Origin: a virus
Taxonomy: Duplodnaviria; Caudoviricetes
IMG/VR virus record: IMGVR_UViG_3300027278_000001
Location: 20,058-84,057 of that record
DNA: 64,000 bases
Direction: 5' to 3' (one strand)
Every line of letters begins with the position of its first letter. Position 1 is the first letter of the stretch. The position numbers and the translations under genes were made by a program. The notes below the pieces were generated by a model, which was not told the DNA's origin, ran no database searches, and was given only the letters and a program-made list of their open reading frames with translations. Below, in pieces: positions 47,812 through 54,862 of the stretch.

Positions 47812-49143
47812 GTGAGGTGTAAGGTAAGAGATTTAAGTCCTGTAGATATGTATAATCTTATGCTTACCTCTACAAAGGCTAAGCCATTCAGGGAACCAAA
47901 TGAAGCATACAACAGTTTGGTTGAGTCCTACACAGCTTTAATAGGTTCAAGGAGCTTCAACGCTGTTGAGTGGTTCTTCACCAATGTGAACAGAGCTGTA
48001 AGAAACAAGTACAGTGGTATGAAGGTGAGACTGAAACAGGAATATTGGTCTGGTAACGCTTGCGGAATTGGGGGTAAGAAGGTCAGGGATGTTCTGGATT
48101 GGTTTGAATACAATGGGTACATCACAGTGTATATGGGCAGTCATGACTATCGTGCAGAGTGGAAGTCATACCCGACAATTGTGAAGTTCAATGAAAAACT
48201 GCTTGACATGCTAGACATGGAGAAGGTAGTATTACACATTCCAGAAGAAAGACTGGAATCAACTGTCATCGTCAAAGACAGATTGACAAAAGAGGAGATG
48301 ATTTTGGAAAAGACACAGACTGTACAAGAGATGGAAAAGGAAGTGACCAAATACAATGAGTCATTCAAAGACGTACTAATCGAGTTTAATGGTGAGGAAG
48401 TACCCCTACTTGAGTACAAACGCTCGTTCTCCGGTGATCTATTCAAGGGTGGTAGGCTCTTTGCTCACGGCGGGAGCATCCAACTTCTTCCTGAGAAGTT
48501 CCGTCTAAAGTACCTGACACTTGACAAAGAACCTGTTTGTGAGATTGATTACAAAGCTATACATGCTTGCATTTTGTATGAGGATATGGCACAGAAGGAT
48601 GACAGAATCTACGAACTTGCCAGAAACGGATTTGATCCGTATGCAGCAGACAGGTCTTGTGTCCAGACTGATGACAAGATGATTGCAAAACATATGATCA
48701 AACACGGACTAACCAAATACGACCCTATACGAAGCCTATTCAAGAGTTCTATGATGATGGCTATTAACTGTGATAGTCCAACTAAAGCTCGCCAGAGTAT
48801 CAACCACGAGCTGTACAAAGACTCTCGACTTGATGAATGTGATCGCCGCTACGTAGGACTAATCAGTCCAGACGCAGAGCAAATCTTGGATGTGCTTAGT
48901 GACCATAACGCAATGATCGAAGAACACTTCTACAAAGACTATGGCGTGCTGTTGCAGAACGTAGATAGCAAGATTGCCCTACGGGTGATTGACTATTTGA
49001 TTCAAGAGGGTCATACTTGTCTTGCGTACCATGATTCATTTGCTGTGAAAGAAAGTGTTGCTCCGTTTCTTGAGTTTGCAATGCGCGCGGCATGGAAAGA
49101 CATTCTTGGTGAAAATAAGTTCTGTTTTACAGAGAGGAAATAA
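47812..49143 (+). CDS. minimal family A-related polymerase (TV-Pol-like), no exonuclease domain
   Basis: YKRSF...GGRLF, motif A EIDYKAIH, motif B-like R...K..MMMAIN, QNVDS and motif C YHDSF. Confidence 0.7.
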   Translation: MRCKVRDLSPVDMYNLMLTSTKAKPFREPNEAYNSLVESYTALIGSRSFNAVEWFFTNVNRAVRNKYSGMKVRLKQEYWSGNACGIGGKKVRDVLDWFEYNGYITVYMGSHDYRAEWKSYPTIVKFNEKLLDMLDMEKVVLHIPEERLESTVIVKDRLTKEEMILEKTQTVQEMEKEVTKYNESFKDVLIEFNGEEVPLLEYKRSFSGDLFKGGRLFAHGGSIQLLPEKFRLKYLTLDKEPVCEIDYKAIHACILYEDMAQKDDRIYELARNGFDPYAADRSCVQTDDKMIAKHMIKHGLTKYDPIRSLFKSSMMMAINCDSPTKARQSINHELYKDSRLDECDRRYVGLISPDAEQILDVLSDHNAMIEEHFYKDYGVLLQNVDSKIALRVIDYLIQEGHTCLAYHDSFAVKESVAPFLEFAMRAAWKDILGENKFCFTERK

Positions 49144-50504
49144 TGAAAACAGTATATGTAGTAATGGTTATGGACTCAGTTCCATACAGTGAAGGTAGTT
49201 GGATTTCTTCTATCTTTGACAGTGAACAGAAGGCTTATGAATACCTTTCTATGATGGAGGAACTGGACGTAGAGGGAGAATACTTCTACACAGTCAAGCA
49301 ATGGGAGCTAAAGTAGCTTGTTTAGCTGCCTAAAACAGCGTATATTCAACGATCACCTATCAACCTATGCTACCCTACTGGGTGCATCTAAAGATGCGTA
49401 TAACGATGATTCTGGGCCATTCTAGGAGGAACAACAATGATTCAAGAATATTACAAATCAGAACGAATGAAAGAACTGGAAGCTCATGCACGAAAGCTTG
49501 AGCGTTTCCACGAAATCCGTAGAGTGTCTATGGCAGCAAATATTGTAGATGGTCATCTCATCATTGGTAATCGTCACTTCTGCCCTTTGATGGGAATGCA
49601 GATTGACTTACTTGGTTTGGATGCACGCAAGCATGACATTCGATATGATCAAGGCTTTGTAGACCAATGGGGAATCTATATGTCTCGTGAAGAAGCTTGG
49701 GATGTGGCTAAGGCTCGTGGGCAGATTAAGGAAGTCATTCAAGAGGGTGTATTGTTTTCGGAGTGTTATTTGTGAACCTAGTACAAGATCGTAACGATAT
49801 GCTTGAGCACTTCCTTAAAGGCGGGAAGCCACATGGACTTCTTGAAGACTATCGAGAGAATAGGAATTCAGAGAGTTGGAGAGTCAGTAGGCAAGTGGAG
49901 GAATTGATGGAATTTATTTTGTTTCTTGAGAAAAGATTGGAGGATAAATGAAGTACAAATTCTATGAAACTGAATTCAGTGCATCAGGGGATAATAGGAT
50001 GTGGCCTGAAGAGGTTTTCAATAATACTTTTGTACTCTTCAGAAAAGAGGTTCAGTGGTTATCCGACAACACAGGTAAGGAGTACAACAAGTTCAAGGTG
50101 GATGATATGACATTTGGAGAGCCTGTTGTGTTTTACGATGGTCATTACATAGGATACCTTGATTCTTTGTTCTACTACGCAATGGATGTAGATTGCTTTG
50201 AAGACTGGTGGGGATTTGAAAATTAAGGGTTATATAAATTATTTCAACTTTTCATTAAAATAATTAGGAAAATCTATTGACAGAATCAAGATCATAGGTT
50301 ATTCTACACAAATCAAGACCTAGACAGGAACTAACAATGCAAGAGAAAGAATGTCCTCTCTGTACACCATTGGTTAGTGAATGTGTTTGCCATTTGACAA
50401 CAACCCTCCCCTACTCGGGAGAGAACTTCAAATTTGAATACACTCACGAACGGGATACAGTACCAAATACACAGTTCTGGAGAATCCTTCCAGAGTATGA
50501 ATGA
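49143..50504 (+). CDS. cluster of hypothetical proteins (49143-49316, 49437-49775, 49763-49951, 49948-50226, 50337-50504)
   Basis: Co-oriented ORFs; 50337-50504 (55 aa, Cys-rich) follows TTGACA-17-TATTCT. Confidence 0.5.
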
Positions 50505-50534
50505 CAATATTTGTCACAATATAACAAATAAGGC

Positions 50535-50563
50535 TTGACAAATCTCATTCTATAGTTCATAAT
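50535..50563 (+). promoter_or_regulatory. promoter of terS and probably of the downstream RNA
   Basis: TTGACA-17-CATAAT. Confidence 0.65.
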
Positions 50564-50590
50564 GAGACTGAACTGAAGGAAACAAACATT

Positions 50591-50971
50591 ATGTCAGAAA
50601 AAGTAGACAAGCTTGGTCGCACAGGCAAAGCGATTGGTGGCAGGCCGAAAGGCTCGACTAGTAAGCGATCAGCACGCCAGACTAAACTGAAAGTCTTCTC
50701 AGATTGGTTTGGGCCAGTTGTAGCTAAAGCGATCAATAAAGCTAGCGTCATTTTAGATGAACCTTTGGATAGTAAAGTTGCCACACCACAGGTACAGTTG
50801 GCTGCTGCCAAGCTAGTGATTGAAAAGGCCCACGACCTCGTGAATGAGGTTTATGGTCGCGAGAAAGATCAGCTAGACGATCCTGAAGAAGATGAACAAC
50901 CAAAAGAAGTTGCTCCAACACAAGCACGGTTTAGCACGAAAGTAGTGAGCATCACCAAGAGTGATGATTAA
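50591..50971 (+). CDS. probable terminase small subunit
   Basis: N-terminal GGRPKGS motif, helical core and acidic tail; nearest non-mobile conserved-looking gene upstream of terL. Confidence 0.6.
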   Translation: MSEKVDKLGRTGKAIGGRPKGSTSKRSARQTKLKVFSDWFGPVVAKAINKASVILDEPLDSKVATPQVQLAAAKLVIEKAHDLVNEVYGREKDQLDDPEEDEQPKEVAPTQARFSTKVVSITKSDD

Positions 50972-50974
50972 ACA

Positions 50975-51892
50975 CTGTCCCGTGTCTATGGATGATGGAC
51001 AGAAAGAATTGACGCCAGATAGACCAATGACAGTACACAGCGACCTCGGCAGATAGTGTATGGATTTACTGCACGTAAGGTGAGATGTTGGTTTATTGAA
51101 AGGCTGGACACTACTCAGGGTTGACTTGCGTATTTAGTTACGCTTCGTCTTCCTCCAGCACAGCGTCATCCTAATCAAGCTTCGGCTTGGTGTCCTAGAA
51201 CTTTGCCTAGTTCATGGAAAGCCCATCTGGCGGTGGGTTGTTTTACGGATACTACGTTCATACGAGGCGTAGTACGTTGACGAGTCGCTATGTAAATAGC
51301 AAAAGACCAGCCCGTTCAACCGGGATGCTGTATTTAAGGGCCAACTACGAGAGTGGTACAAGTACAGTAGTTCTACGAAGGTGTGATCGCAACCATAGGC
51401 ATCAATTGGCCTTTGAGCCCTGTTGTACAGGCTAGTGGTATTCTAGCACTTATTATCGACGGGTAATATTTAGTCTCCTGTAAAGGCACTCCCTAGACGG
51501 TAGGGTATTAAGTCGTCCTTGCGGACGCCACAAGAGGAGAGGCTGCTTAGTGTATGCAAGCAGAGAACTAGAGGCCATGGAAGAGTGGGCGCTCTAGTAA
51601 CTATTCAGACATTCCATATGTCTTCACATTCCCTCATATCATAACCAAAACAATTCCTAGGGGAATGCAATTCAAATAAGGTGTAATAAATGGCACTTCT
51701 ATTTCTGCTACAAACTATCTTTCGTAAATACAGCCGCTAAGCTGAGTATAGATAAAATGTTTTCTCCAAGGCGAGCATGTCGCCTGAAGCACGTTGTTTA
51801 CCTCACGTGTTTCTCCTCCTACCGTGAAGTCCGCAGCGGAGCATGCAAGCGGCATTAATTATTTTACAGAGAAGCTTTGAAATAGGCTTCTC
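50975..51892 (+). ncRNA. candidate large ornate non-coding RNA (densely structured core ~50975-51600)
   Basis: About 20 hairpins and long-range helices, UUCG and GNRA tetraloops, G-U pairs consistent with the plus strand, no credible long ORF, no tRNA. Confidence 0.6.
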
Positions 51893-52013
51893 GATAAAGT
51901 GATTGTGTGGTATGTTGTAAACTTAATGAGAGTGAACGGATTTGCAAGTCCTTCTCCCTGCCAACTCAGGTAGATAGCTCTCGCCTATTTAATCTAGTTG
52001 GAGATGTTTAGTT

Positions 52014-53201
52014 TTGAATGCACATGAAAAAGCCGTAGAAAACTTTAAGATAAAGGCGTCTGAAGTTCATAACGATAAGTATGACTACAGTAGAGTAGTC
52101 TATTGTGACCAGAAAACTAAAGTAGAGATAATTTGCCCCGTACACGGAAGCTTCTTTCAGAGGAAGGACTCTCATTGTAAGGGTGCCGGATGTAAGCAAT
52201 GTGTCTATGAAAATGTCCCACCTAAATGTACAATAGAAGATGTTGTTGCAAGGTTCAGAGTAATCCATGGAGATAAATTTGATTACTCTCTAGTAACATC
52301 ATCTAAGTCAATGGACAAAATTGAAATTGTATGCACTGAACATGGTGTTTTCAAACAAACTGTGGCACATCATTTGGTTTCTCGGGGATGCCCTGAATGT
52401 GCCTACGAGTCCATTAGATTACCATTAGCCGATTTTATTGCCAAGAGTCAAGAAGTCCATAATTACAAATACTCTTACGAGAAGATTTCGTTTTACCCAG
52501 GCTATAACTCCAAGGTTGTTATCACTTGTCCCGAACATGGAGACTTTCAGCAATCAGCTGGTCCTCACATGCAAGGTAAAGGTTGTAGGGAGTGTGGTAC
52601 GAAGGTCTCTTTAAGTAAGAGGTACACAGAATTCACCACAGATAATTTTATCAGTAAAGTTAAAGCGGTACATGGGGATAGGTATGACTACTCCTCGACT
52701 GAATATATAAATACTGAAACAAAAGTTAAGATTATATGTAAAACTCATGGTGTATTTGAGCAACGACCTAAGTGCCACGAAGCTGGCAAGGGTTGCGCTA
52801 AGTGCAGGAATGACAACACGACTTACAACTTTATACAAAAGTACAGAGATAATCGAGAGCTTGGTAACAAGGATGGTTTAATATACATTTTGAAAATTAC
52901 AGGAAACGATGAGTCTTTCTTGAAATTAGGCATAACTTCCAATAAATCAGGAAGATTTAAGCGTTACCGAAAACAATTTAAAGATGTAGGTTACTCATAC
53001 GAAATTTTGTTTGAGTCTGCCATGCCTAATTACCAGACTGCAATGCTTGAGAATGAAATCTTTAAGCAGTTGCGAAGGGAGGGGAGTGTCTACAAACCTC
53101 TGTTTGATTTTTCTGGTAAAAGTGAGTGTATAGTTCCTGAGCGCTTTGAGAAGGTGAAGAGTTTAATCCTCAGTCACACCAAGGATAAATATTTTGAATA
53201 A
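52014..53201 (+). mobile_element. free-standing putative homing endonuclease: 4 zinc-ribbon repeats (DUF723-like) plus C-terminal GIY-YIG/T5orf172-like domain
   Basis: Four YDYS...C..HG.F.Q....H..G.GC..C repeats, then LIYILKI...FLKLGIT...R; TTG start; stop overlaps the terL start. Confidence 0.8.
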
Positions 53202-53292
53202 CCAACAAGTAATCTCGCCTGCCTCGGAAAAGCAGGCGGCATTCCTCAAAGCAGTTAACGAAAATGATATCGTTCTGTTTGGAGGCGCGGCT
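53194..53292 (+). CDS. terL: terminase large subunit, exon 1 (33 codons, not in ORF track)
   Basis: AAGGA SD, TTG start, (M)NNQQVISPASEKQAAFLKAVNENDIVLFGGAA, then in-frame TAA at the intron start. Confidence 0.85.
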
Positions 53293-53524
53293 TAATACTA
53301 TGGGTCGCGTAAAACCCCTCTAATTGCTGGAACTCTCAAGTAGACAATCAGCAGCGAAGGCTTATAAGTAAGCAACGTCCAGAGACTATCGAAAAGGCAC
53401 AGAGATGTGTAACTTAGTAGAGTAGGCTGCAAGTGCAGTCGAAACGGGGGGCTTTCTAAGAAAGAAGATATAGTCCGATTCTCTCAGCGATGGGAGGGAA
53501 CTTAACGAGTTCCATAAGATTTTG
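53293..53524 (+). ncRNA. group I self-splicing intron (232 nt, ORF-less, IA2-like)
   Basis: Exon ends in U and intron ends in G; P1 CGCGGCU/GGUCGCG; P (AAUUGCUGG), Q (AAUCAGCAG), R (CAGAGACUA), S (AAGAUAUAGUCC); P7 GACUAU 53384-53389/AUAGUC 53470-53475; P7.1/P7.2 hairpins; P10 UACUAU/GUAGUG. Confidence 0.92.
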
Positions 53525-54862
53525 GGTAGTGGTAAGTCATATCTTGGTGTGATGGCATTTTTACAGTGGGTCACACAACCAGAAATGGCTAAATTTCGCG
53601 GAGTGATCTTGCGAAGAACAATGGTTCAAGTGACTGGCCCTGGCGGGCCAGCAGAAACTGGACAGGAAATATACCAAACATTTGGTGCCAAGTTTCGAGT
53701 TAAAGATAGTAAATTTGTTTTCCCCAACAACTCTACAATCGTTTGTAAGGGTTGTGAGCAAGAGAAGGATAAGCACAACTTCCAAGGTTGGCAAGTAAGT
53801 GCATTTTTGGTTGACGAAGCTCAGCAATTTGAAGAGTCTCAAGTTCTGTACTTTATTTCTCGTATGCGTACTGCCGCCCCTATGAAGCCTGTCATGATGA
53901 TGACAGCAAACCCTGATTATAATTCCTACCTCCGCAAGTGGTTGGAAGATGCAGGGTACTTGGATGAGAAAGGTATTCCTCGTAAAGACCGTGATGGTAA
54001 GCAAATGTGGTTTGTCCGCATTGGTAACAAAATGGAGTGGAAGGAGTCAAGGGAAGAGCTTCTAGAGATATATGGCCCAGATTGTGGCCCAATGTCATTT
54101 TGCTTCCTGCCGGCCAATTGTCACGATAATCCAATTTTGCTTGAGCGTGATCCCTCCTACGTCCATAAACTTATCAACATGCCCCGAGTAGAGATGGAAC
54201 GCCTTTACCTCGGCTCATGGTACGCAAAAGAACTTTCCTCTGGCTTCATGAAGAAAGACTTCTGTAGGCCTGTTAGGTATTATGAACAGGAGTTTGTTTC
54301 TTATTGCAGGGCGTGGGATATCGCCGGTTCTATCCCCTCAGAAACGCTCCCAAATCCTGACTGGACTGCCGGCGTTCTTATAGGCAAGACAAAACAAGGC
54401 CGGTATGTAGTTCTAGACTCTGTGAGGTTCAGAGCACGGTTCGGGGAGGTAATGCAGAAGATTATTGAAACTTGCAAAGACGATCCCCCAGGAACTCAAA
54501 TCATCCTACCACAAGAGCCTGGACAAGCAGGGAAAGCTGCTGGTCAGATGATGATTAAAGAGATTATCGAAGAAGGGTTTTATGCAAGAATGCGCCCCTC
54601 CAATAAGTCCAAGATAATTCGTTTTCAACCTTTCGCTGCTGCTGCTGAAGCCGGTCTTGTAGACTATGTTGAAGGTCCATGGAATGATGATTATTTTGAT
54701 GAGTTGGAGCTTTTTGACGGAAGTCGAAAGAATAAAGATGACCAAGTGGACGCCACATCGGATGCCTTCATCACGCTAGCCCAGAAGTTCCAAATCCCAA
54801 ATTATATGTCTGGACTCCAATCAGCAGACAACCTCCTTAAAACTAACAACCCATTCGCATAG
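53525..54862 (+). CDS. terL: terminase large subunit, exon 2 (spliced product about 478 aa)
   Basis: Splicing restores Walker A GGAAGSGKS; Walker B FLVDEAQ, MTANP, nuclease RAWDIA and DDQVDA. Confidence 0.95.
   Translation, partial: GSGKSYLGVMAFLQWVTQPEMAKFRGVILRRTMVQVTGPGGPAETGQEIYQTFGAKFRVKDSKFVFPNNSTIVCKGCEQEKDKHNFQGWQVSAFLVDEAQQFEESQVLYFISRMRTAAPMKPVMMMTANPDYNSYLRKWLEDAGYLDEKGIPRKDRDGKQMWFVRIGNKMEWKESREELLEIYGPDCGPMSFCFLPANCHDNPILLERDPSYVHKLINMPRVEMERLYLGSWYAKELSSGFMKKDFCRPVRYYEQEFVSYCRAWDIAGSIPSETLPNPDWTAGVLIGKTKQGRYVVLDSVRFRARFGEVMQKIIETCKDDPPGTQIILPQEPGQAGKAAGQMMIKEIIEEGFYARMRPSNKSKIIRFQPFAAAAEAGLVDYVEGPWNDDYFDELELFDGSRKNKDDQVDATSDAFITLAQKFQIPNYMSGLQSADNLLKTNNPFA

Follow-up and report, generated by a model that had tools for sequence, protein, structure and literature searches.

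A Modular Island of Predicted Structured RNAs Upstream of the Large Terminase Gene in an Uncultured Phage

Introduction

The closest described counterparts of the locus treated here, an island of structured RNA modules around positions 50975-52013 of a 64,000-nucleotide (nt) stretch of an uncultured phage genome (positions 20,058 to 84,057 of IMG/VR record IMGVR_UViG_3300027278_000001, the window below), are small RNAs (sRNAs) encoded among phage transfer RNA (tRNA) genes. In Pseudomonas phage PAK_P3, sRNA1 and sRNA2 (83 and 134 nt) were detected by RNA sequencing (RNA-seq) as abundant late transcripts of a tRNA island just before the large terminase gene, terL, and sRNA2 sits between two tRNA genes (PMC4933390). 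In phage T4, the tRNA region encodes RNA species I and II next to the homing endonuclease SegB (PMC2330249), and the T4 band C/D RNAs are given as the only earlier sRNAs of virulent phages (PMC4933390). The GOLLD and ROOL RNAs typically neighbour tRNA genes in phages and prophages (PMC5737381). A survey of structured RNAs in IMG/VR, the data source of the present genome, reported covarying motifs in the thousands, and many of these either resemble tRNAs or precede terminase genes; they average 67 nt (PMC10690425) and are set beside the present hairpins by description only.

The present locus shares several features with these systems. Like the PAK_P3 island, it is positioned upstream of terL; PAK_P3 is a myophage, and its terL and the present one share about 48% identity. 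By synteny with relatives, it also places non-tRNA structured RNA within a tRNA cluster, as is the case for the T4 band C/D and PAK_P3 RNAs. The band C/D RNAs are stable structured RNAs among tRNA genes beside segB, which drives mosaicism, and the likeness to them is one of layout; unlike T4, which retains its tRNAs, the present phage has none. Unlike the PAK_P3 sRNAs, the present modules are known from sequence alone, and B-core, the only one of them shared by all loci, resembles those RNAs neither in sequence nor by covariance model. No homologue of the 272-aa (amino acid) gene of the PAK_P3 island was found. In the PAK_P3 record (L029, 85348-86578), sRNA2 carries the canonical T-arm GGAGGUUCGAUUCCUC and has the look of a tRNA remnant, unlike B-core. 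GOLLD and ROOL are complex RNAs of unknown function with variable peripheral parts, and a tRNA-gene neighbourhood is common to them and to the relatives of the present phage. However, each is one RNA of ~580-800 nt built on a fixed multi-junction core, whereas only ~140 nt are universal here and the rest is exchangeable. To our knowledge, the sRNAs of virulent phages are almost unexplored: T4 band C/D has gone half a century with no assigned function, and RNA-seq is all that documents the PAK_P3 sRNAs. The locus offers a comparative case in which the tRNA island of one lineage appears to carry exchangeable structured RNA genes.

The B-Core RNA Family

B-core emerges from comparative analysis as a new and highly conserved family of structured RNAs, about 140 nt long. 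Relatives of the locus were collected by means of the protein of the adjacent 126-aa open reading frame (ORF), DNA patterns, and blastn. They comprise Pseudomonas phage vB_PsaM_M1 (L001, Ounavirinae; M1 below) and more than a dozen uncultured phage contigs. Pattern scans and covariance model R1 recovered 13 distinct B-core members, one per phage contig. In the alignment of these 13 sequences, 31 pairs are paired in 98.8% of cells, and compensatory changes affect 9 pairs and 41 cells. Slid pairings used as a control give 0-1, none of 500 shuffles reaches the covariation score, and an 11-sequence MAFFT alignment presents the same picture. G-U pairs occupy 72 of the 403 pair cells (~18%); the other strand would show A-C mismatches at these places, and the fold consequently works on the plus strand only.

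Conservation is not confined to helices. About half of the nucleotides are invariant, unpaired loops included, and the near-invariant loops and joins comprise UUCAUACGMGG, UGACGAG, UUCAAC, AAGGG, and ACUACGAGAG. Together with the covarying helices, this pattern resembles that of a ribozyme or riboswitch, and the RNA is small enough for direct biochemistry and structure work. One hairpin (51287-51300) is optional and occurs in some members only. In 11 of the 11 loci examined, B-core lies inside a gene-free stretch of 0.8-1.2 kb, with the next ORF 400-700 nt away. The ORFs on the downstream side can be sorted into three or more unrelated groups, and the genes upstream differ as well; no association with any particular protein gene was found among the loci compared. 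Nor does B-core keep a constant position upstream of one homologous gene, as would be expected of a riboswitch or leader.

Three further structural readings of B-core were considered. A hammerhead ribozyme around GUUGACGAG...CGAA was rejected by eye, as it would have U at the invariant C3; in addition, A stands in place of the putative G12 in L015 and L020, and conservation is lacking in the stem II region. A pseudoknot between the J segment and the H3 loop, pairing GUUGA with UCAAC, is possible; both strands are invariant and it partly clashes with helix Pa. A long-range GAUGC/GCAUC pairing clashes with the covarying helix P5.

The family was found neither in M1 nor in PHB09 or PAK_P3, model R1 having been run over the whole PAK_P3 record. 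A blastn search of 51170-51620 against 50,697 GenBank phage records gave no match, and thus no cultured phage with B-core, module F, or module C. Among 185,579 prokaryote species genomes, two patterns returned 0 cellular homologues.

Known families were searched with Rfam release 15 (4227 families), by cmscan of 50400-53700 at E ≤ 10 and by a gathering-threshold scan of the whole window. In 50400-53700, nothing was reported besides one group I intron, which lies outside the island; no such intron (RF00028) was found within it. GOLLD, ROOL, phi29-type packaging RNA (pRNA), tRNA, transfer-messenger RNA (tmRNA), and RNase P are therefore excluded at that sensitivity. No tRNA cloverleaf was found either: RF00005 gave no match at E ≤ 10, and ARAGORN (default settings, introns allowed, relaxed scores) returned 0 tRNA or tmRNA genes in the window and 0 tRNA genes in the whole 84-kb genome.

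These results bear on an earlier sequence-only reading, which had described 50975-51892 as one large ornate RNA-like element. Its helix coordinates are exact, and the helix-rich plus-strand structure is borne out by covariation in relatives and by the G-U share of B-core. Covariation or one-sided G-U changes in relatives back most of the quoted helices, namely TGACGC/GCGTCA, ATAGACCAA/TTGGTTTAT, CAAGC-UUCG-GCTTG, TACTACG/CGTAGTA, and CTAGAG/CTCTAG. Covariation among syntenic relatives is thus present within modules, but it does not extend to the proposed long-range helix AAGGGCCAA/TTGGCCTTT, which is unconserved; covariation favours GCCA/UGGU within CUGUA/UACAG in its place. The absence of a tRNA, tmRNA, RNase P, or intron core from the region is likewise confirmed by Rfam and ARAGORN. 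The suggestion of an undescribed large non-coding RNA holds insofar as the structured RNA matches no family in Rfam release 15 and nothing among the GenBank phages, but it gives way to modules where a single RNA had been envisaged. Kinship with GOLLD or ROOL finds no backing, both models being silent at E ≤ 10, and the comparison is apt solely with regard to the tRNA-gene neighbourhood in relatives. A proposed link to DNA packaging fares no better, given the silent pRNA model and the variable genes on both flanks.

Modular Composition of the Island

Comparison of 11 related uncultured-phage loci shows that homology between them is patchy and that modules A, F, B-core, C1/C2, E1, and E2 are inherited separately (Table 1). 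Only B-core is universal, and C1/C2, E1, and E2 are each distributed differently. Module A occurs without B-core in M1 and L007, and B-core without A in at least eight loci. The order varies as well: in L022, F sits 1.2 kb downstream of B-core. Outside B-core, the gene-free stretches of the group L012, L014, L015, L017, and L022 share almost nothing with the window. Because the modules are independent and variably ordered across at least 11 loci, they do not form one 0.9-kb RNA of fixed architecture.

Table 1. Features of the island and its surroundings, in window coordinates.
Feature	Position	Strand	Description
Sigma-70-like promoter	50535-50563	+	TTGACA-17-CATAAT, 11/12 consensus matches; nearest upstream of the island
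126-aa ORF	50591-50971	+	Putative "terS" of the sequence-only reading; sole match phrog_3330 (unknown function, E = 3e-4)
Hairpin CUGUCC...GGACAG	50975-51002	+	Immediately 3' of the stop codon of the 126-aa ORF; in the minimum free energy (MFE) fold
Module A	51003-51172	+	Closing helix TGACGC/GCGTCA; inner hairpin A1 (51019-51096); GCUGGA/UCCAGC helix with inner hairpin
Module F	51173-51241	+	Hairpins CAAGC-UUCG-GCUUG, variable stem with conserved loop YUUGCCUAR, and GCCCA-UCUGGCGG-UGGGC
B-core	51242-51387	+	~130-150 nt; Pa 51245-51277; optional hairpin 51287-51300; H3 51311-51324 with invariant loop UUCAAC
B-core helix P5	51326-51334 with 51361-51369	+	Encloses H4 51340-51357
Linker and module C1	51388-51512	+	Conserved linker GGUGUGAUCGC...GCAUCAAUU; hairpins ~51431-51447, 51451-51468, 51491-51505
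Module C2	51513-51600	+	Hairpins GUCC-UUGC-GGAC, CUGCUU/AAGCAG, CUAGAG/CUCUAG
Scar region	51601-51689	+	Hairpin AGACAU...AUGUCU and conserved leader; relatives' tRNA genes lie just left of here
16-codon ORF	51690-51740	+	Encodes MALLFLLQTIFRKYSR; conserved in 8 distinct loci; 51 nt coding
Module E1	51741-51895	+	Hairpins 51770-51784, 51786-51813; invariant UCCUCCUAC; terminal hairpin 51869-51893
Unaligned linker	51896-51924	+	Precedes E2
Module E2, endonuclease 5' untranslated region (UTR)	51925-52013	+	Three-way junction 51927-51983, then hairpin AUCU-AGUUGG-AGAU 51992-52005
Free-standing homing-endonuclease gene	52014-53201	+	395 aa; phrog_681 E = 2e-63, phrog_559 E = 1e-62
Group I intron splitting terL	53283-53497	+	Rfam RF00028, 72.8 bits, full-length match
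terL exon 2	53522-54862 (ORF)	+	446 aa; N-terminal part of the family profile missing

The modules differ in how well their structures are documented. Module A is present in L004, L011, M1, and L007, its A1 hairpin being swapped for a short hairpin in L007 and found alone in L014, L023, and L024. It is 94.7% identical in L004, 86% in M1, and 96% in L007, where the neighbouring ORF reaches only 70-80%; 4 of its 45 predicted pairs show compensatory changes, among 4 sequences only. Module F, known from 7 loci, has compensatory changes in 5 of 16 predicted pairs, and the stem of its middle hairpin differs in every lineage while the loop stays constant. The linker and C1 are 89-95% identical to L004, L016, and L020 and have diverged in L015, where the hairpin at 51451-51468 retains 6 of 7 pairs by means of double changes. 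Altogether 9 of 28 pairs are compensatory in C1, mostly owing to one divergent sequence. The stems of C2 covary in L004, L016, and L020, with equal positions and different sequences (e.g., UUGGG/CCCAA, CAGGA/UCCUG). In E1, 7 of 14 predicted pairs are compensatory, and the window, L007, and M1 each build an 8-bp (base pair) stem from a sequence unrelated to the other two. E1 also holds an invariant CCUCC block that is anti-Shine-Dalgarno-like, and it probably contains an H-type pseudoknot at ~51823-51855. Judged by eye, the window type and the L004/M1 type show consistent differences in both stems of this modelled pseudoknot.

Further modules are seen in relatives. An insertion of ~115 nt stands right behind B-core in L016 (6964-7075) and L018 (985-1100), with its own hairpins, a CCUGAUGAAAGC block, and no Rfam call. 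An extra module, GCACCGGG...CCCGAGGAG-ACACGGCUGA, is common to L006 (1780-1830), L012 (1550-1640), and L018 (745-835) and is not in the window; the side of B-core on which it lies varies from phage to phage.

Relative to L004, module A diverges by 5% and the F-B-C segment by 9%, compared with 36% for the adjacent ORF. Folding energy constitutes weak evidence here. The sequence-only reading had proposed comparing it with shuffled sequences, and for the whole region the MFE is indeed lower than in shuffles on the plus strand (z = -2.9; minus strand, -1.35), but most modules taken singly do no better than shuffles. The only two outliers are F (z = -2.92; minus strand, -1.34) and E1b (z = -3.09).

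The tRNA Locus and Its Deletion Scars

In relatives, the same interval holds one to three tRNA genes: Pro/Asn/Thr in M1, Asn/Thr in L004, L005, and L011, Thr in L016 and L020, Met and Gly in L006, and Asn in L024. These genes adjoin RNA modules in M1, L004, L006, L011, L016, L020, and L024. The tRNAs of L004 (Asn/Thr), L016 and L020 (Thr), M1 (Pro/Asn/Thr), and L006 (Gly) end right at a conserved ACAUUCCCUCA block. In the relatives, the tRNA genes are followed by a gene of 275 aa; the window has lost both, and a 4-codon stump, ATG CAA TTC AAA TAA (51665-51679), is the remnant of that gene. Judging from synteny, the interval after the 126-aa ORF is the RNA-gene island of this lineage and corresponds to the relatives' tRNA locus, a few kb ahead of terL.

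Deletion scars span 51542-51689 of the window. A tRNA-like 3' half with a GUCGAAGGUUAGAUUCCUUC T-arm, uncalled by ARAGORN, is seen in L023 (4130-4235) and L012 (1760-1890) and probably belongs to a decayed or non-canonical tRNA.

Coding Content and the Endonuclease Leader

The interval 50975-52013 (~1,040 nt) contains no ORF longer than 73 aa in an ORF scan. That ORF (51214-51435) was rejected as a gene, since it is unconserved, and stop codons interrupt all six frames in most homologues. Substitutions in the modules relative to L004 show no 3-periodicity. The claim of the sequence-only reading that no credible protein gene is present therefore stands for conserved long ORFs, but it overlooked a 16-codon ORF conserved in 8 loci. 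At least 10 of its codons carry synonymous changes (including Ser AGC/AGT/TCA), versus 3 variable residues, and a GGAG or AAGGUG resembling a ribosome-binding site (RBS) lies 7-12 nt upstream. Its place is behind the 275-aa gene in relatives and ahead of E1 with its CCUCC block. The product may serve as a leader peptide or as a small peptide with a function of its own; the locus reveals a conserved gene for a 16-residue peptide that standard ORF calling misses.

In every case, module E2 runs directly up to the start of an endonuclease gene and in this respect behaves as a cis-acting leader, unlike B-core. Compensatory changes occur in 10 of its 24 predicted pairs, and the hairpin at 51992-52005 changes from AUCU/AGAU to CCU/AGG in L004. 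From its sequence, this hairpin is clearly predicted to sequester the GGAG RBS of the endonuclease gene, which would make E2 a cis-regulatory 5' UTR. RBS-sequestering hairpins control the translation of phage homing endonucleases such as T4 I-TevI, and E2 is alike in that its terminal hairpin pairs with the endonuclease GGAG and is kept through compensatory change. The locus thereby provides a worked example of an endonuclease RBS masked by a covarying hairpin. The arrangement concerns 51925-52013 only and leaves modules A, F, B, and C unexplained. The start codon of the endonuclease gene is TTG at 52014. In L004 and L007, the same 5' UTR heads a different endonuclease gene (MNYKKIYDQ...), and the recombination point is consequently placed, as it appears, at the start codon.

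Interpretation and Alternatives

Sequence comparison establishes that the island is non-coding, has a conserved plus-strand structure, is modular, is syntenic with a tRNA locus, and matches no known family. The reading preferred here, with a probability of about 0.6, is an island of structured sRNA genes, similar to T4 band C/D and the PAK_P3 sRNAs, that act in trans. According to this proposal, all tRNA genes and the 275-aa gene would have been lost from the present genome, leaving the separately inherited modules A, F, B-core, C1/C2, and E1, together with the 16-codon ORF and the E2 leader. Transcription would cross the island from left to right, in the window probably starting at the 50535 promoter; in relatives, consensus promoters stand directly before individual modules. 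The precursor would then be cut into discrete, stable sRNAs acting in trans during infection. B-core would be the best candidate for such an RNA: its ~140 nt are predicted to form three helical elements in series (Pa; H3; the P5-H4 stack), its invariant loops include a T-loop-like GUUCAAC hairpin, and its probable binding partner is a factor of the host or the phage. The shuffling of modules between phages would be explained by the homing endonucleases of the island and its surroundings. Since the modules survive in a genome without any tRNA, their role would not be decoding.

Promoter predictions are compatible with this scheme. Plus-strand promoters lie upstream of B-core in L022 (12/12 consensus matches, at ~35 nt), in L012 (at ~80 nt), and further off in L014; L017 has a match to the consensus pattern further upstream. 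For the window, the sequence-only reading had placed the region behind the promoter at 50535, and this placement is sound, no strong plus-strand terminator having been found between it and 52013.

Several observations weigh against the sRNA-island proposal. Transcription, processing, stability, trans action, and a binding partner are all inferred. No intrinsic terminators bounding the modules were found, and the modules could therefore remain inside long mRNAs. The folding energies of most single modules are shuffle-like (z of +0.57 for A, -1.29 for B-core, -0.2 for C1, -1.0 for C2, and -0.06 for E2). The support for module A comes from four sequences only, and similarity to the PAK_P3 sRNAs is lacking at the level of both sequence and model. 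Finally, some blocks are 97-98% identical between phages whose neighbouring gene is below 80%, and this near-identity could partly reflect recent endonuclease-driven gene conversion and not constraint.

The lack of terminators is equally what would be expected if the elements were purely cis-acting parts of mRNAs, serving the processing, stabilisation, or translational control of the endonuclease, the micro-ORF, and the tRNAs, with no trans-acting RNA at all. E2, which masks the endonuclease RBS with compensatory changes, fits such an account, as does E1 with its position behind the micro-ORF and its anti-Shine-Dalgarno-like block. For B-core the account is strained, given that the genes on either side differ by locus and the next ORF is 400-700 nt off, and that invariance of about half its nucleotides, unpaired loops included, exceeds the needs of a processing site. 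Moreover, the RNAs of the comparable PAK_P3 island accumulate as discrete abundant species (PMC4933390). A purely cis-acting island is judged unlikely. Slightly less weight is given to B-core as a new functional RNA class with an activity of its own, retained after tRNA loss: a self-processing ribozyme, a ligand or protein binder, or a tRNA-elbow mimic that decoys a host defence enzyme targeting tRNA; the same low estimate covers a new ornate RNA, similar to GOLLD and ROOL, in which B-core would be the core and the domains around it would be exchangeable. Taken by itself, a single ornate RNA of 0.6-1 kb of the GOLLD/ROOL kind, acting as one unit and possibly multimeric, with B-core as its core and the other modules as exchangeable periphery, is rather improbable. 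It would accommodate the gene-free 0.8-1.2 kb around B-core in all 11 loci examined, the tolerance of ~115-nt insertions directly behind B-core in L016 and L018, and the lack of terminators between modules, and GOLLD and ROOL too adjoin phage tRNA genes (PMC5737381). However, the stretches of L012, L014, L015, L017, and L022 barely resemble the window beyond B-core, module order differs, A and B are each found without the other, and the 12/12 promoter of L022 begins ~35 nt ahead of B-core. The GOLLD and ROOL models are silent, and no covarying long-range helix between modules was found, the one proposed in the sequence-only reading having failed.

The remaining alternatives deny the modules an RNA function. 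Functionless relics, either decayed tRNA genes or selfish elements kept similar by homing-endonuclease-driven gene conversion, might be suspected in a mosaic locus flanked by endonuclease genes, all the more as decayed tRNA-like pieces occur in the relatives L007 and L023 and PAK_P3 sRNA2 resembles a tRNA remnant with a T-arm. But compensatory double substitutions keep the helices across diverged lineages, which drift or gene conversion would not do; the Rfam tRNA model and relaxed ARAGORN are negative in the region; and the modules persist although the genome has lost every tRNA gene. There is little to recommend this explanation. Least probable is an element acting at the DNA level, for instance a signal for packaging, an origin of replication, or a palindromic recombination hotspot. 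It would fit the many inverted repeats and a location a few kb ahead of the terminase gene. However, pairing holds on one strand only, with 18% G-U in the B-core pair cells, loops are conserved besides arms, direct terminal repeats are located elsewhere in the genome, and the promoters of relatives point at the modules.

Genomic Setting

The source genome, from an uncultured virus, is 84,057 bp long and has direct terminal repeats. The 126-aa ORF upstream of the island has no Pfam match. It is truly coding: relative to L004 it has diverged by 36%, and third codon positions account for 72 of the 138 substitutions. The hairpin directly behind it shows partial conservation in L004, L007, and M1 and is followed by no U-tract.

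On the other side, the 395-aa homing endonuclease contains Pfam T5orf172 and zinc-finger domains. Together with a short terL exon 1, its gene separates the island from the terL ORF. The position "between terS and terL" assigned in the sequence-only reading is therefore loose: terL does lie downstream, with two coding segments intervening, and the upstream ORF corresponds to nothing more than a PHROG of unknown function. The alignment of the terL ORF starts at position 176 of the 642-position phrog_979 profile, and the ORF is without ~38 N-terminal residues relative to PHB09 terL.

The terL region spans 53194-54862, and the same gene in relatives has 1-2 introns (L004, L006, L014, L015 with two, L016). 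A phrog_4756 gene lies upstream of the RNA island both in the window (47812-49143) and in L022 (2402-3817), and the wider gene order is thus conserved.

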